DNA of 64,000 bases, from assembly GCA_963727755.1 (NCBI GenBank), contig CAVSHN010000008.1, positions 541,156-605,155 of the forward strand, read 5' to 3'. How positions within the stretch are numbered: the first letter of the stretch is position 1; the number at the start of each line of letters is the position of its first letter. The stretch is from an uncultured Chloroflexia bacterium. GTDB taxonomy: Bacteria > Chloroflexota > Ktedonobacteria > Ktedonobacterales > Ktedonobacteraceae. Below, piece after piece: positions 2,332 to 57,029 of the stretch. The position numbers and the translations under genes were made by a program. Below the pieces are notes generated by a model. The model saw only the letters and a list, made by a program, of their open reading frames with translations, did not search any database and was not told the origin of the DNA.

Positions 2332-4192
2332 ATGACACAAGAAGCTGCTACGAAACAAAAGAGCAGTCTGGATAAGTCGATTGATCTGGGGCTAGACCAG
2401 TTTGGGCGTTTTTTGAAAAGCTCTTGGCTCTGGCTCACAATCGTATTCGTACTCATCCTTTTCTTCACATCCATAATCAAGATACCTGGGGTCGATCCAG
2501 GTGTCATCCTCACATCGACGCTTGAGATTGGCTTCGCAATTTGTTACATCCTGATCCAGTTTATCGCTCTCTTCTGGTTCTTAGGACGTCCACGCCTGTA
2601 TTGGGTCATGCCTGGAGAAACTGGAGTCACCTTTGACGATTATAAAGGCAATCCTGAAGTGCTCGAAACAGCCCGGCGCATGGTTGCATTATTGCGTGGC
2701 ATTAAAGAATTCGAGCAAATGGGCGGCAAACCAGTCCGCGGTCTGCTACTCTCTGGCCCTCCAGGAACAGGTAAGAGCTACCTAGCACAGTGTATGAGCA
2801 CTGAAGCTGGCGTCCCATTTGCCTATGCCAGTGCCGCCAGTTTCCGCGCTATGTTCATTGGCATGGACGTCCTTATGATTAGCAGGCTCTATCGCAAAGC
2901 TCGCAAACTGGCACGCGAGTATGGCGGTTGTGTTGTCTTCATGGACGAAATCGACGCTATCGCTACATCACGTACCGCCCGAGGCGGGGGAACTATGGCA
3001 ATGGGAGGCGGTATCTTCGGTGGTATGGGGGGAACAGGTGGTCTCAATCAACTTCTGATGGAAATGGACCCACCGAACATTGAAACAGGCTGGTTTAAGA
3101 AAGTTCTCCGTATGCTCGGTCTCTACCATAGCCGAGCACAGAGTGAACCTGTCCTGACAGTTGGAGCAACCAACGTCCCTGAGTCCCTTGATCCAGCACT
3201 TCTACGTCCAGGCCGCTTCGATCGGAAGGTCCATGTTGCTCCACCAACAGATAAATACCGTCCAGAGGTGATAGAATTCTACCTGAATAAGGTGAAACAT
3301 AAACCAAATATATCTCTTCCTGCACTTTCAGCTCGAATGGTTAACTATACACCAGTTGCCATTAAGCATGTAGTCAATGAAGCAACCATTGTCGCTCACT
3401 TCGATGGCCGCGATACAATCACTTACAAAGATCTTGTTGATGCACAGGATGTACATGAATACGGCCTGCGCCAGATAAGCGAACTGACACCCATCGAACG
3501 CCGTCGTTTGGCTTACCATGAAGCTGGCCATACCGTCGCTGCTTACTACCTGAAGGACCGCGAATACCCAGCATTCGTCACGTTACATGGCCACGGAGAT
3601 GTGGAAGGAGCCGCTGCTTTTGCACATTCTCGACCAAAAAGAAACTGTCATTACGCAAAATCGAGAAGATCTTCTGGCTCAGATCCAAGTCTGCTTGGCA
3701 TCTCGCGCCTCTGAAGAACTCTTCCTCAATACCCAACTGAGCGGCGTCACGTCAGACTTTGCGACAGCGACCCAACTGGCCACGTTATACATAGGCGCAT
3801 TCGGCATGGATGGCACGATTACATCCTACCTAGGTTTTTCCGACGGGTTCATGGGAGCTAATCCACGCGGCTTGCCAAAAATGGAAGAACGTGTAGAAGC
3901 GTTGCTCCAATCGCAACTTAAGGCCGTCCGACAGCTCTTTATGGAACATCGAGAAGCTCTTATCGCCCTTGCTGAAGCCTTGATAGAGCGTGATGAACTG
4001 GTTGCAGAAGAAATCAAGGAGGTGATTGCCAGTGCGGATGCACGTAAGGCTATCCAAACTGTTCTCAGTGAATTCTCTCCACTGCTGGGAACAGGCAACA
4101 ATGGACATAGAGAGGCTATAGCAAATGGCCATAGCAAGGAAACGCCCTCTCTGCCCAGCCCACGAAATAATCCTCCGCAGAACATGGACTGA
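2332..4192 (+). CDS. FtsH-like AAA+ ATPase / M41 zinc metalloprotease paralog, reading frame interrupted
   Basis: Walker A GPPGTGKS, Walker B DEID, sensor GATN, PGRFDRKV, HEAGH zinc motif, then an FtsH C-terminal helical region. The track's ORFs 2332..3714 and 3587..4192 join if one A is dropped from the A5 run at 3636-3640. Atypical N-terminus (two TM helices, no FtsH periplasmic domain) and a Gly-rich insertion between Walker B and sensor-1. Confidence 0.7.
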
Positions 4193-4245
4193 CCAGCGAG
4201 CAAGCAGCGCAGTAAGTTCTCGCACAGATGAGACAAACGCTCTCT

Positions 4246-4290
4246 AAGGATTAGAGGGCTTCCTAGAGCGATCAGGAAGCCCTCTAGCTG
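4246..4290. terminator. Perfect 12-bp inverted repeat (agagggcttcct...aggaagccctct) downstream of the ftsH-like gene
   Basis: Seen directly in sequence; position is consistent with a terminator. Confidence 0.4.
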
Positions 4291-4418
4291 CCCTCTTGTT
4301 AATAGATAGGATATGCAACCTCTCCACTAATTCAAGCGTGCTAGTAGTGTACAATGTCGAGGCCAGACGGCCTGACATCTCACATAGGTACCAACACTCT
4401 AAGCAGGAGAGGTGAAAT

Positions 4419-4721
4419 ATGCCAGTTGTAGGGTTGATCCTTGGTGCAGCATTTCGACCCGATGGCCTTGTGATCTGGCTGATTATTGGTTTGATCGCGG
4501 GCTTCATAGCCAGTCGGATTATGCGTAGTGGTGGCTATGGAGTTATCGGTGACATCATTGTTGGTCTCATCGGAGCTTTCATCGGGGGCTTGCTCACCAA
4601 TCTTCTCATTCCCAACGCTAACTTTGGGTTCATTGGGAGCATCATCGTATCCATCATCGGTGCTTGTATCCTAATCGCGATCATACATGCTTTTCGTGGT
4701 ACTAGTAGCACAAGAGTCTAA
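4419..4721 (+). CDS. GlsB/YeaQ/YmgE family stress-response membrane protein
   Basis: 100 aa, Gly-rich TM helices (GFIASRIMRSGGYGVIGDIIVGLIGAFIGG) typical of the transglycosylase-associated family. GGAGAG SD precedes the start. Confidence 0.75.
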   Translation: MPVVGLILGAAFRPDGLVIWLIIGLIAGFIASRIMRSGGYGVIGDIIVGLIGAFIGGLLTNLLIPNANFGFIGSIIVSIIGACILIAIIHAFRGTSSTRV

Positions 4722-4772
4722 AGATTTACTTCCGTGCCCAGGCCCCAAAGATTGGAGTGAGCTTATAGAGCA

Positions 4773-6746: not shown

Positions 6747-8415
6747 GTGATAAAATTGATGAAAACAGATACTTCACTGAGTCAACTTACTCATACCCTT
6801 TACTCCAGTATGCTTACCAGCTCTCGATCTAAGCAACACTGGCTAACCTTACTAACGTGGATAGCCGTGCTGATTTTCTTCACAGTCGCTATTTGGATGC
6901 GCCTACATTTACTTGACGTCCCTTTTGATCGCAATTCATACGACGAAGGCGTCTACTGGCAATCATTACGCTCAATGAGTACAGGTAGTTTGCTCTATCA
7001 ACAAATTTTCTATTCTCAGCCCCCAGCTTTCTTGCTCTCTATCTATCCTTTCTACGTTCTTCTCGGTCAAACAATCTGGTCTGCCAGACTAGGTATTGCC
7101 ATTATCTCATTATTTGGCTTTCTAGGTGCTCTGCTCCTAGGCAAAGCCTTAGCGGGACGATTGGGTTTGCTTTTTGCATTGCTGCTACTAACCATCAACC
7201 CACTCTACCTTACGGAATCACAGATACTACAGGCTGATGCCCCATCAGCAGCTCTGTCACTACTAACCATAGGACTAGCCTATCTCTGGTGGCAAAGGCC
7301 TAATGGGATTGCAGGATACTGTCTGGCAACTCTGACTGGAATGACACTCGCACTTAGTATCCTCACTAAACTTCTAGCAATTTCTGCTGTGATACCTGTC
7401 AGTCTGCTAGTACTTGCACACCTCGTGAGGACGAAAAAGCAAGCAGAGGTAATTTCCTCGCATTCTAAGAACGTACTCTTCCTCGGATGTGTAGCTATCG
7501 TGCTAACTACCATCTTGCTATTAGAGCCTTTCAGGCCTGCATTTCCACAGTTGTGGAAAATGGTTGTGACTTTCCACACTAAAGCCGAAAGGCCTTATCT
7601 AGCTACGCAAAAATGGAATAGCAGTGCCATTCGGCCTATCCTAGTATCCTTTCTTGGTGCTAGTGCCCTCTATGGCACTCTGATAGCACTATTCAGGCGT
7701 GATTGGCGCGTGATACCATTGTTAGCATGGTTGGTTGCAACAATCTACCTGTTATGGCAACAAGTCCCACTCTTTCCTCACCATCTGGTGGCCCTCACTC
7801 CTCCTCTGATCGCTTTAGCCATCATGGGCATTTCTCCCATCACCTCCGCAGAACAACGTCCCAGACTATTAGATGATCCCTTGTTCCCCCTGGCTACCAC
7901 GAAAAATAGCTTCTTTCAGTAAAAGGATAACCTTTTTAAAAGGCACATCTACGACAACTCACGCACTAGTTACCTATACCACAACCGTACTAGCAATGAT
8001 TTTAGCCATTTGTCAAATATCTATCAATATTCAAGCAATACGATTCTTTTATGACAATTCATATGTAATGGCCCGATCACCAAATGTGCAGCTTAGCCTG
8101 CATGCCGTGCAAGATTTACAGCAATTTACTAAACAAGGCCAGTTAGTCATCACAGATGCCCAGTTCATTGCCGCACAAGCAAACCGCAACACACCTGCCA
8201 GTCTGGTTGATACCTCAGAAGTGCGCATCATCGTAGGCTATTTGCCTACAAGACAACTAAGAGAGGAAGCTTCGCAACCCCAGGTGTACGCTATCCTTTT
8301 TTATACAGATCGTCTTGACAGATTTTTGCCGTCATTCTACAATTGGGTACAGTACCACTTTCACCTCGCCTATTACTATGGCGAAGGAAAGGAGCTATGG
8401 GTCAGAAACCCATAA
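6747..8415 (+). CDS. Second GT39/ArnT-like membrane glycosyltransferase, frame interrupted
   Basis: ORFs 6747..7922 and 7873..8415 together match the neighbouring 563-aa paralog (TM region plus C-terminal domain). They join if one C is removed from the C5 run at 7886-7890. Confidence 0.5.
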
Positions 8416-8551: not shown

Positions 8552-8895
8552 TTATTCATCCCGCCATCCCTTTTTCAATTCACGTACAAAACCGATCATA
8601 CCCTGACGCCAGGTCATTTTCTGTTCTCGCTTAGCCTTTTCTTGCTGGAGCCGAATCGTCTCCAGCATAATAGAGTCGCGCAAGCTTTCCAAGCGCTCGA
8701 CATCATAGGCAATACGCTTCAGAGGATCACTCAACACCGCATAGGCCTGATTGAGCTGCTTGATACGGCTATTCTCGTTACCTTTATTGATGTCAGGATG
8801 ATAGAGGCGCACAAGACGACGGTAAGATTGCTTGATTGCTCAAGAGAGGCATTTGTCGGAACTTCGAGAATTGCATAATAATCTGGCGGCTGCAT
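8552..8895 (-). CDS. J-domain (DnaJ-like) protein, frame interrupted
   Basis: MQPPDYYAILEVPTNASLE in one frame continues as AIKQSYRRLVRLYHPDINKG...LNQAYAVLSDPLKRIAYD in the next, which is a classic J domain with HPD. One base is missing near 8842-8848. ATG at 8895 is preceded by AGGAGA. Confidence 0.6.
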
Positions 8896-8897: not shown

Positions 8898-9350
8898 CTA
8901 TTCTCCTGTACTTCCAAAACCTCCACGGCCACAGCCCACCTGTCCCACTTCATCCCAGACAACACGGGTAACTGGAACAAATATTCCCTGAGCGATACGT
9001 TCGCCACGCAAAACAGAAACTGGTTCGTCACGAAAATTATAGACCGAGACGAGCACTTCATCACCTTCACCACAATAGTCTTGGTCAACAACTCCCACAC
9101 CGTTTGGTATCAATAGCCCCTTACGCTTGGCTGTACTGCTTCGCATGGTCAGGAGCAACATATATCCTGGTGGCGTCTCGACGATAACATTGCCAGAAAT
9201 GCGTGCTAACCTACCTGGTAGCACTTCGGTATCCTCACGGCAAATTAAGTCGAAACCCACTGACCCCGCTGTAGCATATCTGGGTAGTGGCAAGGCTGTA
9301 TCGACTCTTTTGATTTTGACATTCAAACTGTAAGGAAAATGGTTCATCAA
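8898..9350 (-). CDS. dut: dUTP diphosphatase
   Basis: 150 aa with dUTPase motifs (AGSVGFDL, PPGYMLLLTMRSS, GVGVVDQDYCGE, SVLRGERIAQ). Confidence 0.85.
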   Translation of the reverse strand: MMNHFPYSLNVKIKRVDTALPLPRYATAGSVGFDLICREDTEVLPGRLARISGNVIVETPPGYMLLLTMRSSTAKRKGLLIPNGVGVVDQDYCGEGDEVLVSVYNFRDEPVSVLRGERIAQGIFVPVTRVVWDEVGQVGCGRGGFGSTGE

Positions 9351-9361
9351 AATCTGGCAAG

Positions 9362-9783
9362 GATACCCCTGCCTTTAGGCATGGGGAGGAATTGCCCCCT
9401 GCACGCAATGGGATGTGGGGAAGGCAAGTGGAGGGCTGTCCTTGTGCGTAAGCACTCTCTTGCCTCTCCTTTCTGTTCTGTCCCCTTGCGGGGAGCCGTT
9501 TTTTGATAGGAACGGCTAAACCGACACTGGTCTCCCAGGTAATGTTCGCCTCGACGATGATATCAACCGGTACTTTCCGATGAGCACTGGCTTAACCCTT
9601 GTACACCTGTTTAACCCATCAGTTCTAGAGCAGCGGGCTGGCGTCGCACCCGCTGGTAGGAGCTTGAACACTTGTTGATATCGTAGCCCCGTCAGCCTTT
9701 CGGCTGGTGGCTGGGTCTGGTCAGGTGGGCTTGATGAAACAACGTTGCCGCTGCTCACAAGCCCCTAGCGAAAGCTTGCGGGT
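9362..9783 (-). mobile_element. Miniature IS200/IS605-like element with omega-RNA-like scaffold and no protein gene
   Basis: Shares its 5' hairpin, a ~270-nt structured core and a 3' end region with the IscB element at 61030-62701 but has no iscB. The 5' flank is TCAGG before AACCC. See findings. Confidence 0.55.
9516..9783 (-). ncRNA. Orphan IscB-type omega-RNA-like structured RNA
   Basis: Aligns end-to-end with the region 5' of iscB (62430-62700). Stems show compensatory substitutions (gatatcaac/gttgatatc versus gttatcgac/gtcgataac; cggg..cccg versus cacg..cgtg). Confidence 0.5.
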
Positions 9784-10636
9784 TCCTGACAGATGGGTTC
9801 TATTCTAGGGAGTGACATCTCCCCATGACTAATGAATGTTAAGAAATTAACAGGGTAAAGAGATAAGCATCGTATATACCCTCTTAATTTTTTAAAGTTC
9901 ATAAGTCATGGGCTTCCCATCCTCACGAATGAGCTTTTCTGTTTCATCGGGGGTTGCCAGTCTGAGCTTTCGCCTTGAGCGGGTCTTATACTCCCTCCGC
10001 AAACCTAAATTCCCCTGAGCCCCAGGGTACTTACTCAGGAGCCACTTTGGGCTGCTGACAACGCTATTCTAGCAGATCTATCGAAAATTATACACTGGAA
10101 TAGGCAAAAGGTACCCCGGTGCCCAACCCCCATTAAAGGACGCGTCATTCATCCCCATAGCTGAAGCAAGGGGTCTTCTGACGCAAGAAGAATAAGCGCC
10201 GACACGTCAAGGGTTTCCCACAAAACCCAAAACTGTCCCTCTTTTCTCCTATGAGAAAGTGCAAACTTCTGTTAAAATAAAATCAAAATGACAGGCACAA
10301 AAAAGCTAGAGATCCTGCCACCTCCGGTCCTACTAAAACGTATAAAGGGAAAGGCTGTTTAATTTGACTTACCAAATTATCCAAGAATTTCTAGAGAATC
10401 CGGCCCTCAGGGACTAGAATGAAAGGAGGACTTGCGTTATAATTGGAATAGGAATAATTTCCAACTTGATATTGTTGCTTTCTAGAAGAGACAGGATACA
10501 TGTCATTGAATTCCTCTTACTCGGCGCCCGGACAGAACGGTCTGACGGAGGCCCGTTTTCCCTGAGTGTAGGACCATACAAATGAACAGATATCTTGCTG
10601 CTTAGGATATACTTACTTTTTCCTGGAGGGCGCACA

Positions 10637-11852
10637 ATGATAAATACAAAGCGTGCCATGATGGGAACAACGCTTACATTAAATACAATGAAAGATCCCG
10701 ATCCCGAGAAGCCGTTCGACATCGTTGGGCAATTGCTTGCGAAGGATATTGATTATACTCCAGAGGATGAAACGGGCTCAGCTAAAGATGAACAAGAGTT
10801 GGAGGAAGATTTGGGAGATCTCGAGCTCAGGGCCCCTTGAGATAGAAGAGATTAGCGATATACACGAAGAGCTTAGTCCCGTACCAGCCTCTGAGCTAGA
10901 GGTTGATACCTTGCTCCAGTTGCCAACAATTGCTACGGCTACAGAAGGAGAACACCCTGTTCGCCGTACTGCCATGCGCCGTCGGCGTTCAGAAGACCAA
11001 GATGAGAACACCATTAATCCTGCCGATGCAGGCGAGTCAGATGCAGTAATGACCTATCTACGTGAAATCGGGCGGGTTCCGATGATCACGCACGATCGTG
11101 AAATTGAACTAGCCCAAAACATAGAAGCTGGTGATCGCGAGGCAATGAAACAATTTATCCTCGCAAATCTTCGCTTGGTAGTTAGCATTGCTAAACGCTA
11201 CGTTGGTCGTGGACTGACTCTGCTGGATTTGATCCAGGAAGGAAATATTGGCTTGATCAGGGCCGTTCAGCGCTATGATTGGCGTCGTGGCCATCGGTTC
11301 TCCACCCATGCAACTTGGTGGATTTGTCAAGCCATTAGCCGTGCAGTTGCCGATAAAGGGCGTACTATCCGTCTTCCCGTCTACGTCAATACCGCTCTTA
11401 ATCGCATTCGCCGCGAACGCCAACGCCTGTTGCAGGAGTTAGGACGCGAGCCAACTGAGCAAGAACTGGCCGAGGCTACTGGCTTAGATCCTATCCGTAT
11501 GGTCGAGTTGCAATCTGCACCCGGAGCACCTGTCTCGCTGGAATTGCCAGTTGGTGAGGATGAAGAGCAAGAGTTAGGTGATGTGCTCGCTGATACTGAA
11601 TCAGCTTCACCAGAAGATCTCGCTACAACACAAACTCTCAAGGACGAAGTACAACGCGTTCTAGAATCGGTACTCACTCCACGTGAACAGCTTGTCTTAC
11701 AACTTCGTTTCGGTCTAGGCAATGGTCAGGCTCACCCACTTGAGCAGGTTGGCCGAGAACTGGGTATCACTCGTGAACGAGTGCGTCAGATCGAGGCCGG
11801 AGCCCTAGCCAAACTGCGTCAGCCTCCTGTGCTCGATCGCTTACGCAGCTAA
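10637..11852 (+). CDS. RNA polymerase sigma-70 family factor (RpoD/SigA-like), frame interrupted
   Basis: Regions 1.2-4 are clear (YLREIGRVPMIT, DLIQEGNIGLIRAVQRYD, THATWWICQAISRA, RERVRQIEAGALAKLR). The acidic N-terminal region sits in ORF 10595..10840 and the rest in 10725..11852. They join by a 1-nt change in the CCCC run at 10834-10837. Start proposed at 10637 after GGAGGG. Confidence 0.8.
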
Positions 11853-12141
11853 TTCTGCCCTTACATGACATGGACAAAGACCTCCGGCAGGGTGTATTTC
11901 CTGGAAGTGCATCCTGCCGGGGGTCTTTGTGCGTGCATTGCCTTTCAAGCCATCAATAGATCGGGGTATTTCTCGGTTAGCAGGTCGTGCGCCTTGCGCA
12001 GTGCAACAACATAGTCTTTCATCTGGTAACGCCATAGTGCGCTCAAGGTTAGCCAATGCATGACTAAATTTTGCAAAAGCCTAAACTGGTCTAGCATCGC
12101 TCATAGGGGTAGCGCTACGCAAGCTGTCAGCTTACGTAGCG

Positions 12142-12466
12142 CTACCCCTCATACAGTGTCAGCCCTTCTTCCACGATGCTTTGTTGTAATAGCAGATCAG
12201 CATGCTCAAACTGCACTAGGCCGATTTTGAGGAGAGTAGGCACTCGATCGTCTTCCACATCTGCTAAGCGACAGATGTCTAGCCATTCCCTGCGATCTTT
12301 GACACCGACCACTGCCATATCAATGTCAGAAAAAAGTGGTATGTGTGCCCTTTGCTCGTGGACCGAAAAGAATGACTTTCTGCACGCTTGGGAATGTACT
12401 GATGTACTCCACCAGCTTGTTAATAGCCGGATGGAAGGTGTTGCTCTTCTGCGATGTATTCATCAT
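12142..12466 (-). CDS. Minimal nucleotidyltransferase (MNT/MntA-like antitoxin), frame interrupted
   Basis: MMNTSQKSN...VILFGPRAKGTHTTFF then SDIDMAVVGV... in the next frame. The break is an A6 run at plus-strand 12330-12335. The track's 12176..12511 plus-strand ORF is antisense to it. Confidence 0.5.
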
Positions 12467-13493: not shown

Positions 13494-16042
13494 CTTACTT
13501 CTTTCCACCAAGATCGCGTGCAACAGAAACCACGCCTTTGATTCTCTCCAAGCGCATGAATAGGCGATGTAATACCTCTAGCTCAGTAATCTGTACCGTC
13601 ATAGTCACAATGGCAGTATCCCGATTGGCCCGACTACTGATCGAGAGCAAATCAGTTCCAATGTCACCAATGACAATCTTAATATCCCGTACCAGGTTTT
13701 TCTCGTTTCGCGCAACAACTACAATAGATGCAAGATAGTGCTGTTGACTTATTCCCGACCAATCTACATTAATTAGCCGTTCACCATCCTGAGTCCGAAT
13801 ATGAGTTATATTATGACAATCCGCACGGTGGACAGATTACCCCCTTGCCACGACTGACAAAACCAACAATGGCATCACCCGGCAAAGGACAACAACAACC
13901 CGCCAGCTTAGATAAAAGACCACTGACTCCAGCCACCTCCAACTGAGCTGTAGCCACTTTAGTGGTGACGGCAGGGAGTGGACGAGTGTCTTGATCTTCC
14001 TTCAGTTCTCTTGTTTCTTTCCCTTCGCGCTGCTGCCAGTATACAAGGAGTTTCACAACAACAGGATGAGGACGCATATCATCTGAACCAAGACTTGCCA
14101 GGATGTCCTCAAATGACTCGAGATGGAATTCGCTACAGAGCATATTCTCGGCATCTTCCGTGATAGCCTCTACACCACGAGGGCCCACAGCCTTGAGTTC
14201 ACGATCTAACCGTTCACTCCCAATTTGGATATTTATAGGCCGTTCGTGAAGCTTAATGTAGCGCCGAATTTTGCTCTTGGCTGTAGCCGTACGGGCAAGA
14301 CTCAGCCAATCCCGCGTCGGATGTGCCGTACGATTGGTGACGATATCAACAATTTCTCCGCTCTTCAATTCGTAATCAAGTGGCACCATACGCGCCACCA
14401 ACCGCCCTCGATCCTCGCCTTCTTCTATCGTCGGTGTAATAATACGCGCACCAGCACATTTCTCACCAATTCCAGAATGAATGCGATAGGCAAAGTCAAG
14501 CGGAGTTCAGCCAACTGGTAGATCTTTCACTTCGCCTTTCGGCGTGAAGACAAAGATCTGCTCCTCAAAAGCATCATCCTTGCTGCCCACATCAACCAAT
14601 TCGCTCTCGCTCGTATTGGCAGTACGCAGATCTTGCTGCCACTTGGCAAGTTGCCGCAACCAACCTAGTAACTCTCTCGCAGAGGCAGAAGCAGAGTCAC
14701 CAACATCTTTGTAATGCCAGTGCATAGCAACACCATACTCTGCCATTTCGTGCATGGCATGAGTACGAACCTGAATTTCTACAAGTTGGTCATCCAGACA
14801 GAAAACAGTTGTGTGTAGAGCACTATACCCATTGGGTTTAGGATTGGCAATAAAATCTTTGATACGCCCATCCTTTGGCTTCCATAGGCTATGCACATGA
14901 CTCAACACAACATAGCAATCAGTCGTCGTATCAACCAGGATACGAAAAGCGATCAGATCATGAATCTTGCTGATATCAGCCGCCGCCTTGAGCTGTTCAA
15001 AATCCTCAACCTCACTAATTTCGCGTGCAATTTTTCGATAGAAACTATAAGCATGTTTCACACGCCCAGAAACTTCCGCTTTGACTCCGATCGCAGCCAT
15101 CTCTGAGCGCAAGAGACCACAGACATGCTCAACATACGACCTCCACTGCTTACTCTCTTCCTCGATGATATCGCGCACCCAGTTATACTTCTCGGGCTCT
15201 AGAACCTCAAAGGCTAGGTCCTCCAGCTCACACTCTACGCGTGACATACCCAGCCGTCCCGCCAGTGGAGCATAAATCTCTCGTGCTCCCTGCGCTGTGA
15301 CAAGCACCTGTTGCTGATCACTTGGATATATTTTTTCACGTATAAGGCGCATAGTATACAAGCGATATGCAAGTTTGAGGAGCACAACTCTGGGGTCATC
15401 CGCCATTGCTACAAACATCTTGCGAACAGCCTCGGCTTGTTGGCGACGCATTGCCTCCCGTACACGCGGCTTTTTACTTTCCACATTTGAGGCTATGCCA
15501 GCATCATTTTGCTCATTATAAATCTTCTTATGGCTTGCAGCTTGCATATTCTTAATCGTCGCCATTGCACCAGTTGCTGCATTTTGCTTTTTACGTTCCA
15601 AAATATTGAGCCGAGCCATACTGTCAATCACACGTGCGGTAGCTCTTCCCAAGACACGCTCGACCTGCTCAATAGTCAAAAGTTCAGCATCTACCGCTTC
15701 AAAGATCAAGCCAGCAGAAATACCTATTGCATCGACATGCATCATTTGAGCTAGAATGGTTGTGACGGCCAGAGCACGTTCCACGCGAGGCAGGAGATGC
15801 ATCTCTTCTACGCCCTGGCGACAGCTATCTAGCGATAACCGAAAAGCCGCAACTACCATATCTACCTCCTGGACATTCATGTATGGGGATACCAAGTCCA
15901 GGAGTTGCTCCATTGCACTCTGGTAAGGATCTTCTGTGATGTGTTGTTCTATCGATCTATCATCTATCATAGACTTTTTGGCTATGAAAAGGTATACCAC
16001 CTCAAGGAGAGAACAGTTGACCTGTAAGGCCACCTCCAACAT
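13494..16042 (-). pseudogene. RelA-like long RSH paralog with degenerate hydrolase motif and several reading-frame lesions
   Basis: Synthetase domain is intact (DLIAFRILVDTTTDCYVVLSHVHSLWKPKDGRIKDFIANPKPNGYSALHTTV). The HD motif is replaced (FEAVDAE versus HDVVEDT in the neighbour). There is an in-frame TGA at 14497-14499 where the paralog has Ser (PVG*TPLD). Around 13812-13850 the conserved GKGVSVHRADCHNITHI only appears in a +1 frame between two compensating indels. An ACT domain follows, ending GGKK. Confidence 0.6.
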
Positions 16043-23978: not shown

Positions 23979-25168
<1,190 letters not shown>

Positions 25169-34033: not shown

Positions 34034-37000
34034 ATGCCTGGGAATAAACAAGTCTTTAGTACAGCACTGAATGCTGCTGAGCGCCTCCTTTGGGCTTGCC
34101 AATGGATACAGGCTCTGCAAGAATACCAACAAGCACTTGCTGAGTTCCCAGAAGACTTAACAGCTCGCAGCGGTCTCGGCTTCTGCTATATGCAGACCAA
34201 ACAATGGTCAAAAGCACTCGAGGAGTATGGATATGTCCTCAAGAGCGAGCCGAGTAATATTATCGCATTAAGTAAAATTGCCGAGTTGTATGGTATTTTG
34301 AATCAACGTGAGGACGCCTATCATGCGTACCTCCATCTGGCGAATCTCTACTCGCAAGCTGGCCAGGGAACACGCGCAGAGGCAGCGTGGCAGAAAGCTG
34401 TTCAACTGTCCCCCGGCAAACCAGAGCCCCATGAACGGCTCGCAAGCTACTATTTTGAGAAAAAAGATATCGCTCAGATGATTCAACAACGATTGGCAGC
34501 TGCGCAGGACTACCTTCTGTGCAATAAGATCTCATCAGCACAGAAACAATGTGAAGAAGTACTGCGTGCAGATGCAACAAACGCTCAAGCACAACAGATA
34601 CTCGTGCAAATCCAGGATAAAGAAAATGAGGCATCCAATCCATTAGCACTGATAGCAGGAGTATCATCGGTTAACAATGCAGATAGCCCTGTGAATAGAA
34701 TATCAGCAGCCAAAACTGATTCTATCCTATCTAGGGATAACTCTGCAAAAGAAACTTTTCCATTGGGAAATATAAGCGGAGGGAATACTGGCATGATGAA
34801 TAATATGGGCGGCGCAGGTAATTATGGCAACGTTGGCAATTTAGGACCAACTGCAACCATGAACGGGAATGGTGGAGGCATAAATTCTGCCCCTCAGCAG
34901 AGGATCACTGCCAGCCAAGTCACAGAAGCATTGCAACAGGCGCAAATATATCAAGACCAGGGCCGTTTCAACGATGCTATCAACCTCTGCGAACAGATCC
35001 TGGCAAGTGGCTTTGACCGACCAGACGCACGATACTTCCTAGGTTGGCTTTATCAGGAACAACAGCGCTGGGACGAGGCCGTTGAACAGTTCCAGGCTTT
35101 ACTCAACGACCCTGACTACGCACTCTCCTGCTACTACTCACTGGGGCAATGCTACCGAGCAGGCGGCGATTTACGCTCTGCCACCGTGCATTTCGACGAG
35201 GCCGTTGATCGCGTCAACCTCGACGCCCTGACGGTGGAAGAGTCCGATCAACTTGTTCAGCTCTGTCAAGAGGCCGCTGAGGCTCACCGCCTATTAGGCG
35301 AACAGGAACAAGCTTTCACGATCTATAATGCCTTACTTGGTTTCCTGCGCAGTCGTGGCTGGAATGATAAAGTTACGCAGGTCGAGTTCATGATTCAACA
35401 GGCACAGAATATTCTTCCTGCCGACGCTTCTTCAATGACGGGTATGGCACAGACTCAGTCGCCACAGATACCAGCCGATGAAGTCCTCGAAGCTCCCACA
35501 GTAGCTGTCAATACAGCTAACATAGCCAGTAACACACAGTCATCACCTGCTCCAGCCAGTTCTACCGGTGACTTACCTGATTGGCTCACAGGCATTTTGA
35601 ATGATGAGGACAAAACACAAAGGGCCAATAAGCCTGCTACCCCTCCCCCTGCGGCCAAACCAGCACCAGCCATCGAGCAGCCAGCACCCATACAACCTCA
35701 GACTGCTACACCACAAGCATCGGTTGCCCCTCCTGTCGCACCAATAGAACCACCCACGACTACTACACCTGCAAAATCGACTTCCTGGTTAACAGACGAT
35801 GCCAATGCCAACGCCACGCGTGTTCTTCCACCAGAACCCCCGGTTCCTGCTAAACTCAACCACCTGCCGCACCAATACCCGTGCCACAACCACCTGCTGC
35901 ACCGCAGGCTGCTTCCACTGCCCCCATTCCAGAGCCAGCATTTCAGCCGCCTGCCGATGTATTCATACAACCAACATTTAGTGCTCCATCAATTCCTCCA
36001 GTAGATCAGCCTGCTTTTTCCATACTAAGCACTTCTTTCACCCCAATCCCTCCTACACAGCTAAACGGAGCTGCCGCCGCCGAAGATCTGCTTAACCAAA
36101 TGGCTGGAGCACAAGCTAATGAGCTAAATAACGTTGCTGACGCCGTTCTAGCCAGCACAGCTTCATTGCCAGAAAATCTACGCCTGCAAGTCGTACGCTC
36201 CATGCAGAACATTCAGAAGTATATCAACCACGGACTACTGACCCCAGCAAAGGAAGAGTGCTTGCGCGTAATCAATATCGCACCACAATATCTAGATGTA
36301 CACCAAGTACTATGCGAAATCTATGTCCGTGAGGGAAAGATCGATCAAGCCATCCCCAAATACGCTATTCTGGTCGATACCTACATCGCCAACGGGCGTA
36401 TCGAAGATGCTACCGCAACTTACCGACGCATCCTAGAACTCGACCCCAATAACATTACGTATCGCATGCGCCTAATCAATATGCTCTCGGCCCAGGGCAA
36501 CACAGAAGACTTACTGCGCGAGCGTACCTTGGCTGCCAGAGTCTTATCTCCGCCTTGGCTATATGGACCGCGCAATGACTGAGCTTGAACAGGCACTGCT
36601 GGAGAATCCGACCAATGTGCCAACTCGTCTGAACTATGCGCTGGCACTACAAAAGCTAGGACGTACCCAGGAGGCCATTGCAGAATACCAGCGCGTGTTA
36701 CAAGTTGATCCGCGCAATACCACTGCCCTTGTCCGTTGGCATGTCGCGATGGTCACAAACCTAGGTACGCCCCGAGGCACATCGCTCGAGGTGCTGTCAC
36801 GTATCCGCTGGCAATTGCGTGGTCCAGGACAGAAATATGCAGACTTTGTGACACGTGAGTATCTACAGGCATTAGATCTCTACCCCAACAATGCCGATGT
36901 GCATTATACATTAGGACAAATCTACCAGCAGAGTGGTCAATACGACCGTGCACTCGACTCATACCTCCTAGCCACACGCGATAATGCTGTCGAGATCCTG

Positions 37001-44449: not shown

Positions 44450-45010
44450 CTATGTTTTGCTACGAGAAGATCTCAACGAACCCCGCCGTGTGGCCTCCTC
44501 CAGACTAATTAGTTCGTCTTGGCCTTTTCCTTGTGCTTTCCTCCGCCGTGTCGTCTCCCCCAGAATGATTGGAGGACTCTGCTCGTCTTGGCCTTTTCCT
44601 CGCGCTTTCCACCTCCATGTCGTCTCCCCCAGAATGATTGGAGGACTCTGTTCGTCTTGGCCTTTCCTCCGTATCCCTCCTCGCCGTGTCGTCTCCCCCA
44701 GATGAGGACTTAGCATCCCCAACTCGCCTTTTCCTCGCGCTTTCCACCTCCGCGCCATCTCTCCCAGATGAGGACTCAGTATCCCCAACTCGCCTTTTCC
44801 TCGCGCTTTCCACCTCCATGTCGTCTCCTCCAGATGAGGACTTAGCATCCCCAACTCGCCTTTCACTCGCGCTTTCCACCTCCATATCGTCGCTCCCAGA
44901 TGAGGACTTATTATCCCCAACTCGCCTTTTATTCGTTTCTCCCTGGGCTGATGATATATCACGTCTCTTCGCAATATTTCGGGAAGGCTCCACCGATGAG
45001 CTTGCGCCAA
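44450..45010. repeat. Minisatellite of about eight units of 59-69 nt
   Basis: Units are cgtcttggccttttcctcgcgctttccacctccatgtcgtctccc(c)cagaWtga.... Unit length varies, and ORFs are open in four frames, so coding status is uncertain. Confidence 0.6.
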
Positions 45011-46579: not shown

Positions 46580-47078
46580 TTTTACGCTCCTTTTACTTTT
46601 AACAGATATTCAAACTCTTTCAAACTCATTCAATCTCGTTCAGGCGAGACGCTTCACACCGTTTTTCAAAATCAACACAATACATTGGCTCAGAGCTGGT
46701 ATGGGCAATGGCAGTCTCTCTCCATGATGTTGACAACTCACGGTCAAGAGATCACGCCTCCTGCCATTCCCTCAACTGGAGAACTGTTCGGCTGTGCCCT
46801 CGACTCTCATACTCAGCAACAGCCCTAGCTTTCATCATACCTTCATCACTGCATGCTTGCCAAGATGACAAAGAGGTGACATTGTCATGTAGATCATCGA
46901 CAAAGCCAGACAGGTGAGGTTGATCTTCTTGCGTGGAGATTGCCCACGGGAAGCGGGAACGATAAATGAAACTGATGGAAATTCTGAGGAGTATTGGTCA
47001 AAGCACCCGCTTGCCTAACGCCAGCGGGCGCAATAAATCGGGTATGCGCCGCAAATCTTATGCGCGTTTTCCCCCTGA

Positions 47079-48459
47079 TCAATCATAGCTACGACGATTG
47101 TTGCTACGATTACTAAAGTTGCCAACGAGATGAGGTGCAACACCCCCTTTTTCCAGAGCATTACGCAATTCACGTAGATCTGTATCTCCATTGACGGCAA
47201 GCATACCGGGGGCAAGCTGGCGGATACCAAATTCCTGAAGCTTGGCAGATGCAGATAACTGAGCTATCGCCTCTTCACTCGACACTTTCGAGCAGCAGAA
47301 CCTGCGAGATACGTGTCTCTTTGTATTGCCGAGCCCAATCTCGCAGCGTATAAACAACATTCTGGGGCAATTCCTTATGACTATTTTCCTCTAGAACCTG
47401 GATAATCCGCTCAACAGTGTAACCAGCGGCCATGCCACGCAAGAGGGATGCTTTCGTCAGTGTTAAACGGCTAGCTGCCGCAATCTGATTGACCTGAACA
47501 AAAGGCAGTACACTATATAACGTTGGCAGGTGAGAGTGCAAGAGTAGCAATTCGAAGCTAGGCTGGACAATTAGGAAGCGTTGTGTGCCATTTCCATTAT
47601 CCGTCTGTTGGCTAACTTTAGTATGCTGTTCAGATGTTGGGAGCACGGTCGCGGCCAGTTCACTAAGCATAAAAGTATCAGGATTTCGATATTTTTCCTC
47701 AGTAGGAGCAATCTGATAACCTAGGCTCACGATCCCCAAGTCACGCAATGAGCTATCAAGCATACCAACATAAAATTGGCCATCGCTCTTCATCCATTTG
47801 TGGCGAGCATCTTTGTCATTGCGCAGGCGTTTTTTCGCTGACGACCCACGGCGCATCGCCTCAGGATTTTTCTCCCATAGTTCCTCTAGGAGAGAATCGA
47901 CCCTATACCACTTGTCTGGTATACAAGTACACAACTGTTCTAGTAAGACCTGACGCCCTTTACGTATATCCAAGTCATAAAGGTAGGAATACGAGTCCCA
48001 GGGATCATATTCTGCTCTAGCTACGTCTATAATGTGCTTGTTATGGCTCCATTCTTTTAGTAACAGCTTCATCTGCCCAACTATATCCAGACGGGACCAA
48101 GATATCAATTGGGAACCAGGGTCAATGCATGGCTTCATATCGCTAAAGGGCGGCTCGGTACGTTGCAGGACATGCATATTGATCAGCAAATCAAAGAGCA
48201 TGTCAGTATAATTATCTGTGCCATTATAGTCCAAACGAGGCTGTCCTTTAAGTTGTGGACGTAGCTTATTAACTATACGCTTGGGAATGTGCCCGGCCTG
48301 TGTCGGTTCAATCTTCTGCTGATAAACGGCATTGACTATTACTGCCACATCGTAAATTATTGCTGGCTCAGCAGCATACTCGACTGGTGGTGCTGTTTCA
48401 AGTATTTTTAACATCCTTCTCCTCAGGTTGGTATGTTTCAAGATAACGGATAACCTCAC
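47079..48459 (-). CDS. Hypothetical protein, possibly frame-interrupted near 47300
   Basis: ORFs 47275..48459 and 47079..47360 look like one gene. The start may be the internal MLKILET at about 48414. No confident family. Confidence 0.3.
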
Positions 48460-49536: not shown

Positions 49537-49884
49537 TCACACTTGCAAGGACTTCCTAGATCGCTTTTGCCTTTTCCCACCATCTTTCTTAACTGGAGAG
49601 TCACTAAGCGCACGAAGTACCGCTTCAGGTTCGCGGTCAATCACCTTGAGGAAAGCCTGTGCAGGACCAGAAGGCACCGCTCGTCCTTGTTCCCATTCTT
49701 GCACAGTGCGAACACTTACACCAAAATGAGCCGCAAATTGGCTCTGGCTCATCCCAATTTTTTCACGAATGCGTGCTGTATCAATTTCAGGAGGGATATG
49801 GACGACACAGCCATTGTCCTCACCACGAGCGAAGGCTAGAGCTTCATTTACGCTATCGATCAAGCTTTGCCCAAAACTAGTCAT
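49537..49884 (-). CDS. HigA/XRE-type HTH antitoxin
   Basis: HTH (IREKIGMSQSQFAAHFGVSVRTVQEWEQGRAVPSGPAQAFLKV). Its ATG overlaps the stop of the upstream toxin remnant (ATGA). Confidence 0.65.
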   Translation of the reverse strand: MTSFGQSLIDSVNEALAFARGEDNGCVVHIPPEIDTARIREKIGMSQSQFAAHFGVSVRTVQEWEQGRAVPSGPAQAFLKVIDREPEAVLRALSDSPVKKDGGKRQKRSRKSLQV

Positions 49885-50130
49885 GATTTATTTCTCCTTC
49901 GATATGTGTCAGCAAGCGCGGCAAGCGTTACCTTCAACTCATTCCGTTCCGCTTGTGTTATATCAGCTCTCTCGTTTTTTGCAATTACGCGCTCCCCCTG
50001 TTCCCTTAATCTCATCCCCAGCATCAGGGTTAGCTGCTACAAAATTCACAATTTCATCGTGCTCTTCATCGGACATCCCAAGCAATTTTACATCTCGCTG
50101 AAAGCGATCCGTTTCAACAACCGTTTGCAT
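49882..50130 (-). pseudogene. Remnant of a HigB/RelE-like toxin (DUF1044 type), truncated and frame-shifted
   Basis: MQTVVETDRFQRDVKLLGMSDEEHDEIVNFVAANPDAGDEIKGTGGAR, then after an A6 run (plus-strand T6 49975-49980) IAKNERADITQAERNELKVTLAALADTYRR. The central toxin core is absent. Confidence 0.4.
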
Positions 50131-51831: not shown

Positions 51832-52656
51832 ATGACATCTGAACTTGTAATTAAAAATCTTCATGCCAATATTGAAGGCAAACCGATTTTGCGCGGTGTG
51901 GACCTAACCGTCAAGCAGGGTGAAATTCATGCACTGATGGGTCCTAACGGCTCAGGCAAAAGCACATTAGCCAACGTCATCATGGGTAACCCCAAATATG
52001 AAGTTACCGAAGGTGAGATCTGGTTTAAGGGTGAGAATATTCTCGAATATGCACCAGATCGTCGTGCTCGTATGCGCCTGTTCCTAGCATTTCAGTACCC
52101 TATGTCTATCCCAGGTGTAAGCGTAGCCAACTTCCTACGCCGCTCTCTGGAGGCTGTACGCGAAGGAAACAAATCTCTTGAAGAGGGTGAGAACCCCTCC
52201 GGCAAGATGACCAAGCGTAAGACAGTTCCTCCCGGTGAGTTCCGTAAACTCTTGCAGGAGAAGATGCGCTTGCTCAAAGTCGACAACAGTTTCATTAACC
52301 GTTCCATCAATGATGGCTTCTCTGGTGGTGAGAAAAAGCGTGCGGAAATCTTGCAGATGGCACTCCTAGAGCCTGAAATCGCGCTAATGGACGAGACCGA
52401 CTCTGGCCTAGATATTGACGCGCTACGTATCGTATCTGAAAGTGTCAATGCTTTGACTGGTCCTAACCTAGGTATTTTGCTGATCACTCACTACCAGCGC
52501 ATGCTCAACTACATCACGCCTGATTACGTCCATGTGATGTTTAACGGTCGCGTTATCAAATCGGGAGGCAAAGAACTGGCCCTCGAGTTGGAAGAGAAAG
52601 GCTACGAATGGCTCAAGCCTGCAAACGAAGAGAGTGGAGTAAGTGCCGATGTCTGA
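51832..52656 (+). CDS. sufC: Fe-S cluster assembly ATPase SufC
   Basis: Walker [13 protein letters not shown] signature FSGGEKKR, Walker [16 protein letters not shown] at 51832 after AAAGGAAGG. Confidence 0.85.
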
Positions 52657-53968
52657 ATCTAAATCCCAATCCAACGTTTTGGCTCCAAGATTCTCGCGGG
52701 CTGCGGTAGAGGAACTCTCACGTCTAAAGGGAGAGCCCGATTGGATGTTGCAGTTGCGCTTACATGCCTGGGAGACCTATGAAAACACTCCAGCGCCACT
52801 AGGTCGGCGCGGTGACCTAGGTACCCAGCGCACTGTTGCCAACTTCAAGTTCGAAAACCTGAACGCATTGACCCCGTCGTCCAGCTCAGTTCTGCCTACT
52901 GCTATCGAGCAATCATTAGCATCTGCGCTAATCAACGAGCGTTCGGGTCTGCTCGTCCAACTCAATGCCAACGTCGTACGCAACGAATTGCGTGAAGATC
53001 TTAAGCAGCAAGGAGTGATCTTAGTCAACCTGGATACAGCTGTCCGTGAGTATCCCGAACTAGTGCAGAAATATTTTATGACCGAGTGTGTGCCCATAGC
53101 AACCAGCAAGTACACTGCATTACATGCAGCATTCTGGACTGATGGTTTCTTCCTCTATGTGCCACAGGGTGTCGAGATTGAAGAGCCGATCCTAGCCCAA
53201 GTCTGGCTAGACACACCTCTATCTGCTACATTCTCGCACACGCTGATCATTGCAGAACCGCAAAGTAGTGTGCGCTTCGTCCAAGAGTACAATTCGCTCG
53301 TTGCAGGCGACGACCCTGCTCTACTGAGCGATGTAGTTGAGATCTATGCTAACCGTGAGGCACGTGTTGAGTTCAGCAATATGCAGGATCTCGGCCAGAA
53401 TATCTGGAACATTACTAATAAGAATGCCATTCACCAGAATGATGCCAGTGTAACCTTTGTGATCGCCGACCTAGGTAGCGCAGTTAATCTAGAAACCATC
53501 GGTGCTGATTTGCAAGGCAATGGTACAGCGGCAGAACTCGTCGGTATCTTTTTCACCGATCACAATCAGCGCTACGTGATCAAATCTCTCTCAGACCACA
53601 TTGGCCTCTCTACCAACGCTGAGACGATGGTTAAAGGCGTGCTTACCGACGAGTCACGTGTAGAATTCGATGGTATGATCCGCATTCGTCCAAAAGCCCA
53701 GCAGACAGCCTCATTCTTATCAGCACACGGCCTATTGCTGAGCAAGAAGGCACGTGGTGAGTTCATCCCTGGCCTAGAGATCGCGGCCAACGAAGTCAGT
53801 GCCAGCCACGGTGCGACTTCGGGTCAGATTGACGAGGAGCAACTCTTCTACCTGATGGTACGTGGCATTCCACGTCCTGAGGCCGAGCGCATCATCGTAC
53901 AAGGCTTCTTTCGAGCCAGTTCTACAGCGCATCCCATTGGAAAGTCTGCGAACTCGGTTGCGCCGTAG
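52643..53968 (+). CDS. sufD: Fe-S cluster assembly protein SufD (SufB/D family)
   Basis: C-terminal beta-helix signature ([36 protein letters not shown]). NLLLS rather than LLLD favours SufD over SufB. Confidence 0.7.
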
Positions 53969-54238
53969 CATCGTACATCGCATGAGCGGTGGCTATGAGA
54001 CCGAAGCCAACATCTGGATTGACGCCCAAGAACGCTGGGAAATTGAAGGAGTCGACGAGGGAGCAGTCCATCTGGACGATAGCACGAAAGCAAACGAAGA
54101 GATCAAACTCACAGAATATTAAGGAGCGCACTCTCCCTCTTAAATAGAGGGAGAAAAAGGGCATTATACCATTGCAGATGAATGTGGCTTATGCTATACT
54201 CCTCCTAAACCTACATCAATGCAAACAAATGGGGGAAG

Positions 54239-55213: not shown

Positions 55214-55225
55214 GTAGAACAAACT

Positions 55226-56594
55226 ATGGCTACATTTGACAACACATTACACATCGCACAAACCAAACCCATCATGCGCCCCACCGAGGAGATCCGCAAG
55301 GATTTCCCTATTCTCTCACATAAGGTGCATGGCAAGCCACTGGTGTACTTAGATAGTACGGCCAGTTCGCAGAAGCCCACAGTTGTGCTTGAAACGATGG
55401 AGCACTACTACCGAACCTACAATGCCAACATCCATCGCGGCGTCTACCACATAAGTGAAGAGGCGACAGCCGCAATGGACAAGGCGCGTGTGAAAATCGC
55501 TCGTTTCATCAAGGCACGCCAGAGCAAGCAAATCATCTTCACGCGCAACACGACCGAGAGTATCAACCTTGTGGCCTATAGCTGGGGGGATGCAAACATT
55601 CATGCTGGCGACTTGATTGTACTGACCGAGATGGAACATCACAGCAATCTTGTCCCCTGGCAACTGCTAGCTCAGCGTACAGGTGCCCATCTAGAATTTA
55701 TCCCGGTAAGTGATGAGGGCCTATTGCGTCTAGACATCTATCAGGAAGTCTTGCAACGGCAGCCAAAATTGGTAGCGTTTACCCACATGTCCAATGTCCT
55801 GGGAACAATCAATCCCGCCAAAGAGATGATCGCACAGGCGCATGCAGCGGGAGCCACAGTACTGCTAGATGCAGCCCAGAGTGTGCCTCACTTACCAGTC
55901 AATGTAGAGGATCTCGACGTCGATTTCCTGGCTTTCAGTGGACATAAGATGCTTGGTCCTACAGGTATTGGTGTCCTTTATGGCAAACGAGCATTATTAG
56001 AAGCCATGCCTCCATTTATGGGCGGTGGCGACATGATCCGCACGGTACACCTGCGCGAATTCTACTTGGAACGATCTACCATGGAAATTTGAGGCCGGAA
56101 CACCAGCCATTGCTGAGGCTATTGGTCTGGGAGTTGCGGTAGATTATTTGAATGAGTTATTGCAGTATCCTCCAACGGACCAAAGAGAAAACCCAACAGA
56201 CATGGGCAATCCCAACGGAGCAAAGCTCAACATGTCAAGCAATCTTGTATCGAGCATGGCAGCGGTACAACAACACGAGAGTGAGATAACAGCCTATGCC
56301 ATGGAGCAGTTACAAGCAATTGCTGGCTTGAAAATCTATGGACCCGATGCCAACCAACGTGGCGGAGTCATCTCTTTCACACTAGATGATATCCACCCAC
56401 ACGATCTGGCCTCGATCCTAGACCAAGAAGTGGGTGTAGCAATCCGTGCTGGCCATCATTGCGCCCAACCCTTGATGGACCGATTTGGGCTAGCCGCAAC
56501 GGCCCGTGCCAGCTTCTATATCTACACACTTCCAGCAGAAATTGATATACTAGTACAGGGATTACGCAAGGCACAAGAAATCTTTCGTTTCTAG
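55226..56594 (+). CDS. sufS: Cysteine desulfurase SufS, frame interrupted
   Basis: PLP Lys in FSGHKMLGPTGIG and catalytic Cys in RAGHHCAQP. ORFs 55226..56092 and 56148..56594 join at about 56063-56067 (REF then TWNDLPWKFEAGTP). About a 40-aa insertion follows DYLNEL. Confidence 0.85.
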
Positions 56595-56627
56595 TGCTCA
56601 TATCACATTAGCGAGGTCAATTTTGTC

Positions 56628-57029
56628 ATGGCAATAGACTATCGAGAATATATACTGGACCATTATCGTGATCCACGCAACTATGGAGAGCTAGCACATC
56701 CTGATGTGCATTGCGAGGACTTCAACCCACTCTGTGGCGATCAACTTGCTATGGACTTACAAATCGAGAGCGACCGCGTCACAGATGTACGCTTCCACGG
56801 GCGAGGCTGTGCGATTAGTCAGGCAGCCGCCTCAATGCTCACTGAAATGATCGAAGGCAAGACCGTGCAGAGAGGTAATTGCTCTGGGGAAAGATGATGT
56901 TCTGGAAGCACTTGGTATTCCCATCAGCCCAGCTCGTACAAAATGTGCATTTCTCTCCCTACGAGTACTGCACCGTGGCCTCGCCCTTGCAGGCCTTGAG
57001 AAGCCTGCAGAAGACGATGAAGTATAATT
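56628..57029 (+). CDS. sufU: SufU/NifU-like Fe-S scaffold, frame interrupted
   Basis: CGD, HGRGCAIS and KCAFLS Cys motifs. ORF 56628..56897 continues as EVIALGKDDVLEALGIPISPARTKCAFLSL after a 1-nt shift near 56866-56870. Confidence 0.75.

Follow-up and report, generated by a model that had tools for sequence, protein, structure and literature searches.

Private single-base lesions that split genes in a Ktedonobacteria contig are very probably long-read consensus errors

Comparison of the window (the whole 64,000-nucleotide stretch of Ktedonobacteria contig CAVSHN010000008.1 analysed here) with related sequences revealed 16 lesions, 15 single-base frameshifts and one nonsense substitution, in 14 of roughly 58 genes (about 24%). 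The lesion density was about one per 4 kb. All 16 were private to the window assembly, and their flanks were otherwise conserved. Since the extra and missing bases occurred in no related genome, errors of long-read assembly, rather than biology, are almost certainly their cause. We consider it very probable that the genes of the organism are intact and that the breaks reflect errors left in the consensus of what was probably a Nanopore-only assembly. We infer that this holds for all of the lesions rather than for most of them. The first-pass annotation had also read the breaks as consensus errors and not as gene decay; the privacy of the lesions, purifying selection, the separate frameshifts of sister assemblies and an in-frame sufB in a same-strain contig all bear it out.

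The lesions were placed by base-level comparison with close relatives and by protein-level comparison with distant relatives. They are listed by window coordinates and strand; the last line is a putative break from the first-pass annotation.

3636..3640, plus strand: ftsH-like AAA+/Peptidase_M41 gene (2332-4192; 619 aa in relatives); extra A, A5 against A4 in relatives
7886..7890, plus strand: second GT39/PMT_2 paralog (6897-8415; 505 aa in relatives); extra C, C5 against C4 in relatives
8836..8837, minus strand: DnaJ-domain gene (8552-8895; 114 aa); missing C, GATTGC against GATCTGC in relatives, outside any run
10823, plus strand: sigma-70 gene (10637-11852; 404 aa in relatives); extra G, CTC[G]AGC
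12330..12335, minus strand: MNT nucleotidyltransferase antitoxin gene (about 12139-12466; 108 aa in relatives); extra A on the plus strand, A6 against A5
13835, minus strand: RelA/SpoT paralog (13495-16042; 846 aa in relatives); extra G on the plus strand, ACA[G]ATT
14507..14509, minus strand: same RelA/SpoT paralog; in-frame TGA stop by substitution, TCA to TGA, where all relatives have TCA or TCG (Ser) in the TGS motif LPVGSTPLDF
24544..24547, plus strand: tgt (23985-25168; 394 aa in relatives); missing T, T4 against T5 in relatives
29812, plus strand: response-regulator/ANTAR gene (29662-30235; 190 aa in relatives); extra C, CTA[C]GTA
35852..35854, plus strand: TPR gene (34034-37972), first lesion; one base missing beside AAA
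36538, plus strand: TPR gene, second lesion; extra A, GCC[A]GAGTC, at a GANTC site
45988, minus strand: orphan-family gene (44955-46604); extra T on the plus strand, GGA[T]TCGAGC
47285..47287, minus strand: Helicase_C_3 gene (47097-48414; 444 aa in relatives); one extra base, ACA[C]TTTCGAGC on the plus strand
53909..53911, plus strand: sufB (52643-54122; 490 aa in relatives); extra T, T3 against T2 in relatives
56060, plus strand: sufS (55226-56594; 455 aa in contig L176); extra T, GCGAA[T]TCTAC, at a GANTC site
56870, plus strand: sufU (56628-57021; 132 aa in relatives); extra G, GCA[G]AGAGG
49975..49980, minus strand: T6 run of a claimed toxin remnant; putative break

The RelA/SpoT paralog and the TPR gene each carried two lesions, and three of the six genes of the suf operon were broken. 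As had been noted from the sequence, housekeeping genes were affected, namely tgt, sufS and the sigma-70 gene (primary according to its JGI annotation). The splitting was also seen in Pfam profiles, whose coordinates ran on across adjacent ORFs: from 3-173 to 168-355 in tgt, from 4-49 to 55-191 for Peptidase_M41, from 1-45 to 45-110 for Response_reg and from 1-240 to 272-371 for Aminotran_5.

The first-pass annotation had counted at least 17 split genes. The splitting itself was upheld, with most breaks lying 0-11 nt from where it had put them, while the number came down to 14. Its breaks in the ftsH-like (3636), GT39 (7886), MNT (12330), tgt (24544) and ANTAR (29812) genes agreed with the bases of the relatives, and the one base missing at the AAA of the TPR gene was found at 35852. 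Three approximate positions were refined, from about 8842 to 8836/7 in the J-domain gene, from about 56065 to 56060 in sufS and from about 56868 to 56870 in sufU. The break in its 47.3-kb gene proved to be the extra base at 47285 in the Helicase_C_3 gene. Two breaks had been misplaced: the sigma factor lesion is the extra G at 10823, the C4 run at 10834-10837 not being involved, and the second TPR lesion is the extra A at 36538 and not a "tt" at 36545. Two indels had been assigned to the relA-like gene; the one at 13835 was found, and the other turned out to be the stop codon. A break had likewise been assigned to a cassette paralog. A frameshift in the cassette ORF at 21652-22215 was rejected, as this ORF looks intact; if the gene at 44.9-46.6 kb was meant, the break is the one at 45988. 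The sufB frameshift is additional to the earlier list. The 40.7-46.6 kb genes, the 28.4-29.4 kb insertion and the repaired toxin remnant matched no Pfam or NCBIfam family. Thus, the reported tnpA was not located in the window, and the toxin reading stays a presumed resemblance to RelE/HigB-type toxins.

Comparison with orthologous loci, a check that the first-pass annotation had itself proposed, found the relatives in frame at the lesion sites. Three to seven close relatives (88-96% DNA identity), which comprised short-read JGI contigs and ENA contigs of long-read style, showed the in-frame state at the stop codon and for 14 of the 15 frameshifts. The remaining site, 36538 in the TPR gene, was covered by seven distant relatives only, all of which read straight through it as a single ORF of 1287-1390 aa. 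For this site, the helicase gene and the suf genes, we used an ispH-based scan, in which all relatives had at most 88% amino-acid identity. The other TPR lesion, at 35852, adjoins a 30-nt tandem repeat that is contracted in frame by 90 nt, with two copies in the window and five in contig L001.

Sixteen single-base repairs turned each broken gene into one ORF with the length seen in relatives. The repaired tgt and sigma proteins matched those of relatives with 96-97% identity over 100% of their length. Among the genome contigs listed, the top match of the repaired sufS was Dictyobacter kobayashii (76%). The repaired orphan-family gene encodes 549 aa and aligned continuously with its neighbouring 553-aa paralog; a metagenome scan found no relatives of the latter. 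In the repaired frame, the parts of the genes downstream of the lesions had a dN/dS of 0.223, with 0.180 for the upstream parts and 0.235 for intact genes.

Further evidence came from four sister assemblies with the naming style of a long-read assembler (ERZ25039481, ERZ25039466, ERZ25039509 and ERZ25039486), from which contigs L088, L089, L090, L174, L175 and L176 were compared. These assemblies represent one population, with 99.1-99.8% mutual identity, and they carry private lesions of their own. Their 16 private 1-nt indels comprised 13 insertions and 3 deletions, the same bias as in the window (12 and 3). The genes that were split differed from one sister assembly to another and included PMT, HepT, RelA, sufS, Rrf2 and HerA among others. 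Still closer to the window were four Logan contigs of run ERR11594402, with 99.8-99.98% identity over 10.3 kb. These contigs were assembled separately, possibly from the same reads. Their sole indel relative to the window was its extra T in sufB, which is in frame there; in L179, the 99.8% identical contig at this locus, the lesion at 53909 is absent. None of the other 15 lesions falls within the 10.3 kb covered, and the same-strain contigs near the sufU, ANTAR and helicase lesions end 99-352 nt before them.

These features point to a simple origin. Each lesion would be a single base wrongly inserted (12), dropped (3) or miscalled (1) in the consensus, and the gene caller would then split each intact gene at its error. 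Some errors would arise at short homopolymers, and several at the recurrent motifs GANTC and TCGAGC. Coding indels relative to the relatives were either multiples of three or exactly 1 nt, and classes of 2, 4 and 5 nt were absent. The breaks had been described as lying mostly in homopolymer runs. This was overstated, as only 4 of the 15 frameshifts fell in runs of at least four bases, although this was about 5-fold above the background of 5.3% (P=0.007). About half of the lesions were insertions outside runs, several of them adjoining GANTC or TCGAGC. The density is similar to that of lightly polished or unpolished Nanopore assemblies, which contain single-base indels at about 0.2-0.4 per kb. 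The adjacent ORFs that jointly match full-length orthologs, at sites that differ between assemblies of one organism, also resemble known Nanopore frameshift artefacts. By the textbook, Nanopore errors should be mainly homopolymer deletions, whereas here only about a quarter of the lesions lay in homopolymers of at least four bases, and insertions were dominant.

Some sites appeared to be error hot spots. GANTC occurred within 2 nt of 7 of 31 private indels against a background of 2.3%, and TCGAGC within 3 nt of 4 of the 16 window lesions against about 1%, both motifs having been chosen post hoc. In sufS, the same 10 nt were differently anomalous in three of four long-read assemblies, including the sisters L174 and L175, and the 45988 site was also affected in these two. 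Nanopore consensus errors fall into two main classes, methylation motifs and homopolymers (PMC6591954). The recurrence at short motifs, at the same site across assemblies, resembles the Dcm CCWGG errors of Enterobacteriaceae (Wick et al. 2019, PMC6591954), but such published cases are mostly substitutions, whereas the window lesions are mostly 1-nt insertions. A base modification that disturbs base-calling may account for the errors at GANTC and TCGAGC.

Alternatively, all of the lesions could be present in the DNA, through recent extensive pseudogenisation or in a hypermutator deficient in mismatch repair. A mismatch-repair defect does yield single-base indels in short runs, and paralogs and toxin-antitoxin genes are among the broken genes. 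However, decay would be expected to spare essential single-copy functions, and in this one contig window sufB, sufS, sufU, sigma-70 and tgt were all broken. Nor was there the signature of decay, a dN/dS rising toward 1 past the lesion with lesions of mixed types and sizes: selection downstream was not relaxed, multi-base frame-breaking indels were absent, and insertions outnumbered deletions 4:1. Bacterial mutation has a deletion bias, the opposite of this excess. The same-strain contig without the sufB lesion and the similar lesions at other sites in sister assemblies of one population also argue against it, and we regard this explanation as extremely unlikely. The share of interrupted genes is high, as in the pseudogenisation of Mycobacterium leprae or Sodalis, but unlike in those genomes the lesions here are 1 nt long, mostly one per gene, found under unrelaxed selection in genes that include essential ones, and missing from relatives and, for sufB, from the same strain. 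Programmed ribosomal frameshifting, transcriptional slippage or phase variation at the breaks is less credible still, and its probability seems vanishingly small. A few lesions do lie in A5, A6, C5 or T4 runs, and two overlapping ORFs for one protein recall prfB, dnaX and the IS3 transposases. Such a mechanism would predict that orthologs conserve the two-ORF arrangement and a slippery motif, whereas the orthologs of the window genes are single in-frame ORFs whose runs differ by one base in either direction, which led us to reject programmed frameshifting and phase variation. A common slippery motif and a stimulator were absent, more than half of the sites lay outside runs, both +1 and -1 changes were present, and the runs were shorter than typical contingency loci.

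A mixed case is easier to imagine, with most lesions being errors and a few in accessory genes being real inactivating mutations of decaying loci; candidates would be the MNT gene, the RelA/SpoT paralog, the toxin remnant and the orphan-family gene. The HEPN-like partner of MNT has lost about 200 nt to a real deletion and is truncated. The RelA paralog, which adjoins an intact second RelA, was hit twice, once by a nonsense G-to-C transversion. For the toxin remnant, the T6 run is unchanged in L172, a contig of the same strain that was assembled independently, so that a break there, if there is one, would be a real one; the frameshift claimed at this run is supported by no protein family. On the other hand, in the RelA paralog dN/dS was 0.18 for the part upstream of the frameshift and 0.17 for the downstream part, and at one lesion per 4 kb chance alone predicts two in a 2.5-kb gene. 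The MNT lesion, a +1 change within an A run, is also of a typical kind. Real lesions of this kind are thus possible but doubtful. The choice of platform also deserves consideration. Homopolymer indels are produced by flow chemistries of the 454 or Ion type, and the excess of random insertions in PacBio CLR reads would match the 12:3 bias. The pyrosequencing-type origin mentioned in the first-pass annotation is unlikely in view of the lesion spectrum, with 11 of 15 lesions outside runs of at least four bases. The motif recurrence fits modification-sensitive Nanopore base-calling better than the random errors of CLR, and the contig_N naming on a 649-kb metagenome contig also speaks against these platforms. 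Overall, a platform other than Nanopore seems very unlikely.

The technology was thus probably Nanopore, as the Flye-type contig naming suggests. The contig_N style is also used by the MFD long-read MAGs, a link to the Microflora Danica project by naming style only. The MFD-LR project used Nanopore-only Flye assemblies with one Medaka round, and reported Nanopore-associated errors for MAGs of low coverage.

With the breaks read as consensus errors, the gene calls of this contig would be wrong for about one gene in four, as would protein lengths and pseudogene counts derived from it, and the same probably applies to the MAG. Claims based on the raw frames, such as that sufS is a pseudogene, that the sigma factor is truncated or that there are novel small ORFs, would be artefacts, and the split genes themselves would hold no new biology. 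There is little reason to believe that a burst of single-base insertions, for example through a mismatch-repair defect, has only recently disabled about a quarter of the genes of a soil Ktedonobacteria lineage, including Fe-S assembly and a major sigma factor; this appears highly improbable. A milder reading, likelier than such a burst, is that the hot spots reveal which motifs are methylated in this uncultured lineage. That errors recur at GANTC and TCGAGC may serve as a cheap hint at candidate methylation motifs of the lineage and at where polishing should be focused.

Sixteen lesions split 14 conserved genes of the window. Fifteen are one-base frameshifts, which were pinned by aligning the DNA base by base and, with more distant relatives, by comparing translations across the junctions; one is a nonsense change.

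Lesions in the window (position, gene, change)
3636, ftsH-like gene, extra A
7886, GT39 paralog, extra C
8837, DnaJ-domain gene, missing C
10823, sigma-70 gene, extra G
12330, MNT gene, extra A
13835, RelA/SpoT paralog, extra G
14507-9, RelA/SpoT paralog, TGS motif, nonsense TCA to TGA
24544, tgt, missing T
29812, RR-ANTAR gene, extra C
35852, TPR gene, one base missing
36538, TPR gene, second break, extra A
45988, orphan-family gene, extra T
47285, Helicase_C_3 gene, one extra base
53909, sufB, extra T
56060, sufS, extra T
56870, sufU, extra G

Pfam profile coordinates carried over into the adjoining ORF in tgt, sufS, sufU, the M41 peptidase domain and the receiver domain. Single ORFs were found in relatives for the ftsH-like protein (619 aa), GT39 paralog (505 aa), DnaJ-domain protein (114 aa), sigma factor (404 aa), MNT (108 aa), RelA/SpoT paralog (846 aa), tgt (394 aa), RR-ANTAR (190 aa), TPR protein (1343 aa), Helicase_C_3 protein (444 aa), SufB (490 aa), SufS (455 aa) and SufU (132 aa). 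After the 16 repairs were applied, each broken gene became one unbroken ORF with the length seen in relatives, and the repaired orphan protein (549 aa) aligned continuously with the neighbouring 553-aa protein, the site of the repair included.

The first-pass annotation, which described at least 17 genes split by one-base indels, was largely right in its observation. It attributed the splits mostly to homopolymers; no more than four lesions fall in runs of at least four bases (A5, C5, A6, T4), although this is an enrichment over the 5.3% background (P=0.007). The sigma break, placed in a C4 run at 10834, is actually the extra G at 10823, and the second TPR break, placed at a "tt" at 36545, is the extra A at 36538. 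Two "relA" lesions are indeed present, one being a stop codon, and the sufB frameshift had been overlooked. No tnpA was found in the window, and the cassette ORF at 21652-22215 appears intact. An independent contig of the same strain has the identical T6 run in the supposed toxin remnant, and a frameshift there lacks any family support.

The window has a GC content of 46-50%. The top matches of the repaired tgt and sigma-70 proteins were full-length sequences on soil metagenome contigs at 96-97% identity, and their named matches were Ktedonobacteria (Chloroflexota). Exact look-ups recovered the split pieces of tgt (205 aa), ftsH-like (460 aa) and sufS (288 aa) on the deposited record. The window's own gene pieces lie on one NCBI and ENA contig of 648,902 bp, and therefore the window is a copy of the deposited assembly. 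In GTDB records the Microflora Danica long-read MAGs have the same contig_N naming, from which we infer that the contig probably came from that project. The project made its assemblies from Nanopore data alone, using Flye followed by a single Medaka round, and reported Nanopore-associated errors in its lower-coverage MAGs.

Nearly the entire window was covered by close relatives, the JGI short-read contigs (L001-L005, L091, L177) and ENA contig_N-named sister assemblies (L088-L090, L174-L176), at 88-96% DNA identity. All lesions were private to the window, with the in-frame state in every relative covering each site. Selection was unchanged, with a dN/dS of 0.180 upstream of the lesions and 0.223 downstream in the repaired frame, against 0.235 in intact genes. 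Coding indels relative to the relatives had lengths either divisible by three or of a single base, and the lone -91 nt case comprised three units of a 30-nt repeat and one further base. The one-base events included 12 insertions and 3 deletions, and bacterial mutation naturally favours deletions; the indel spectrum is unnatural. The genes hit included three of the six suf genes, tgt and a sigma-70 (primary in the JGI annotation), and a bacterium living free in soil would probably not survive such damage. The sister assemblies share 99.1-99.8% identity with one another, yet the broken genes differ in each. A PMT gene, HepT and RelA were broken in L089, and RelA at another site in L090; sufS was in three pieces in L174 and in two in L175, where Rrf2, HerA and others were also broken, while L176 was nearly free of breaks. 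Their 16 private one-base indels showed the same bias (13 insertions, 3 deletions). Four Logan contigs of run ERR11594402, a separate assembly of the same strain, matched the window at 99.8-99.98% identity over 10.3 kb, in which one lesion lies; the sole indel was the T that the window has in excess at 53909, and the Logan assembly therefore has an in-frame sufB. With the recurrence by sequence context described below, seven lines converge to support the reading already proposed for the splits, errors in the consensus of a long-read assembly. The split genes hold no biological novelty.

The MNT locus and the RelA paralog may be two truly decaying loci. The paralog carries two lesions, although at one lesion per 4 kb two are expected by chance. 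The HEPN-like NTase_sub_bind gene, partner of MNT, was shortened by a ~200-nt deletion (window 11950-12140; L088 11307-11720), which is genuine and leaves a gene remnant, in contrast to the one-base lesions.

Two HEARO (omega-RNA) Rfam matches scored 120-129 bits.

62463-62707, minus strand, HEARO match directly upstream of an RRXRR+HNH (IscB-like) 433-aa ORF (61128-62429, minus strand)
9539-9790, minus strand, solitary HEARO match within a ~840-nt insertion (9347-10190)

The ~840-nt insertion was missing from L088-L091, and in the sister assemblies an RRXRR-HNH gene was placed instead between ispH and the methyltransferase. The orphan family (40712-46990, minus strand) looks like a variable-C-terminus cassette system: the 553-aa and repaired 549-aa proteins are 61% identical up to about residue 270, beyond which their sequences are entirely different, and a repeated module of 350-550 nt precedes each gene (41804-42352, 44077-44441, 46609-46990). 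The family had no Pfam or NCBIfam match, and only three matches among 1.8 billion representative proteins. An array at 19700-23900 (plus strand) held 5-6 paralogous ORFs of ~140-190 aa in which the N-terminal ~100 aa are conserved and the C-termini vary; no family match was found, and order and copy number varied among the window, L001, L004 and L090. A 30-nt tandem repeat in the TPR gene, encoding PQPPAAPIPV, was present in two copies in the window (35855-35915) and five in L001 (20440-20590), reflecting either in-frame copy-number variation or an assembler-collapsed repeat. The ~1-kb insertion at 28430-29434, which separates the DAHP synthase gene from the RR-ANTAR gene, was missing from L001-L005, and its overlapping ORFs had no family match. 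At 49537-50130 (minus strand), a 55-aa ORF preceded a 115-aa MqsA/HTH_3-like antitoxin, a locus missing from L174-L177. One A fewer in the A6 run would lengthen this ORF to 82 aa, which we take to resemble a toxin of the RelE/HigB type that has lost its central part; no family match supported the likeness. In this lineage SufS is longer by an insertion of ~30 aa (455 aa versus ~420-425 aa in more distant Ktedonobacteria).

Window 56100-56200 (compare L176 13090-14457), SufS insertion, falling after position 240 and before position 272 of Pfam Aminotran_5

In the sister assemblies the region of SufD has diverged strongly or is broken, while that of the window is intact.

The errors also clustered by sequence context. 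GANTC lay within 2 nt of 7 of the 31 private indels of the window and sisters (2.3% background), and TCGAGC within 3 nt of 4 of the 16 window lesions (~1%), both statistics being post hoc.

Clustered private indels (GANTC/TCGAGC)
Window: 36538, 56060, 10823, 45988, 47285, 53909
L174: 1268, 14252
L175: 1269, 18605
L089: 5640

The 10-nt sufS stretch GCGAATCTAC bore an anomaly, each time different, in three of the four long-read assemblies, and site 45988 was also affected in L174 and L175. Such recurrence of context-specific errors that survive consensus is a hallmark of systematic base-calling errors, whose two known main classes are homopolymers and methylation motifs (PMC6591954). GANTC was under-represented in the window (166 copies versus ~250 expected). 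The practical yield is the set of 16 repairs. In this lineage the motifs GANTC and TCGAGC may be methylated or otherwise modified, and the clustering of errors at them, though post hoc, is a useful hint in that direction.
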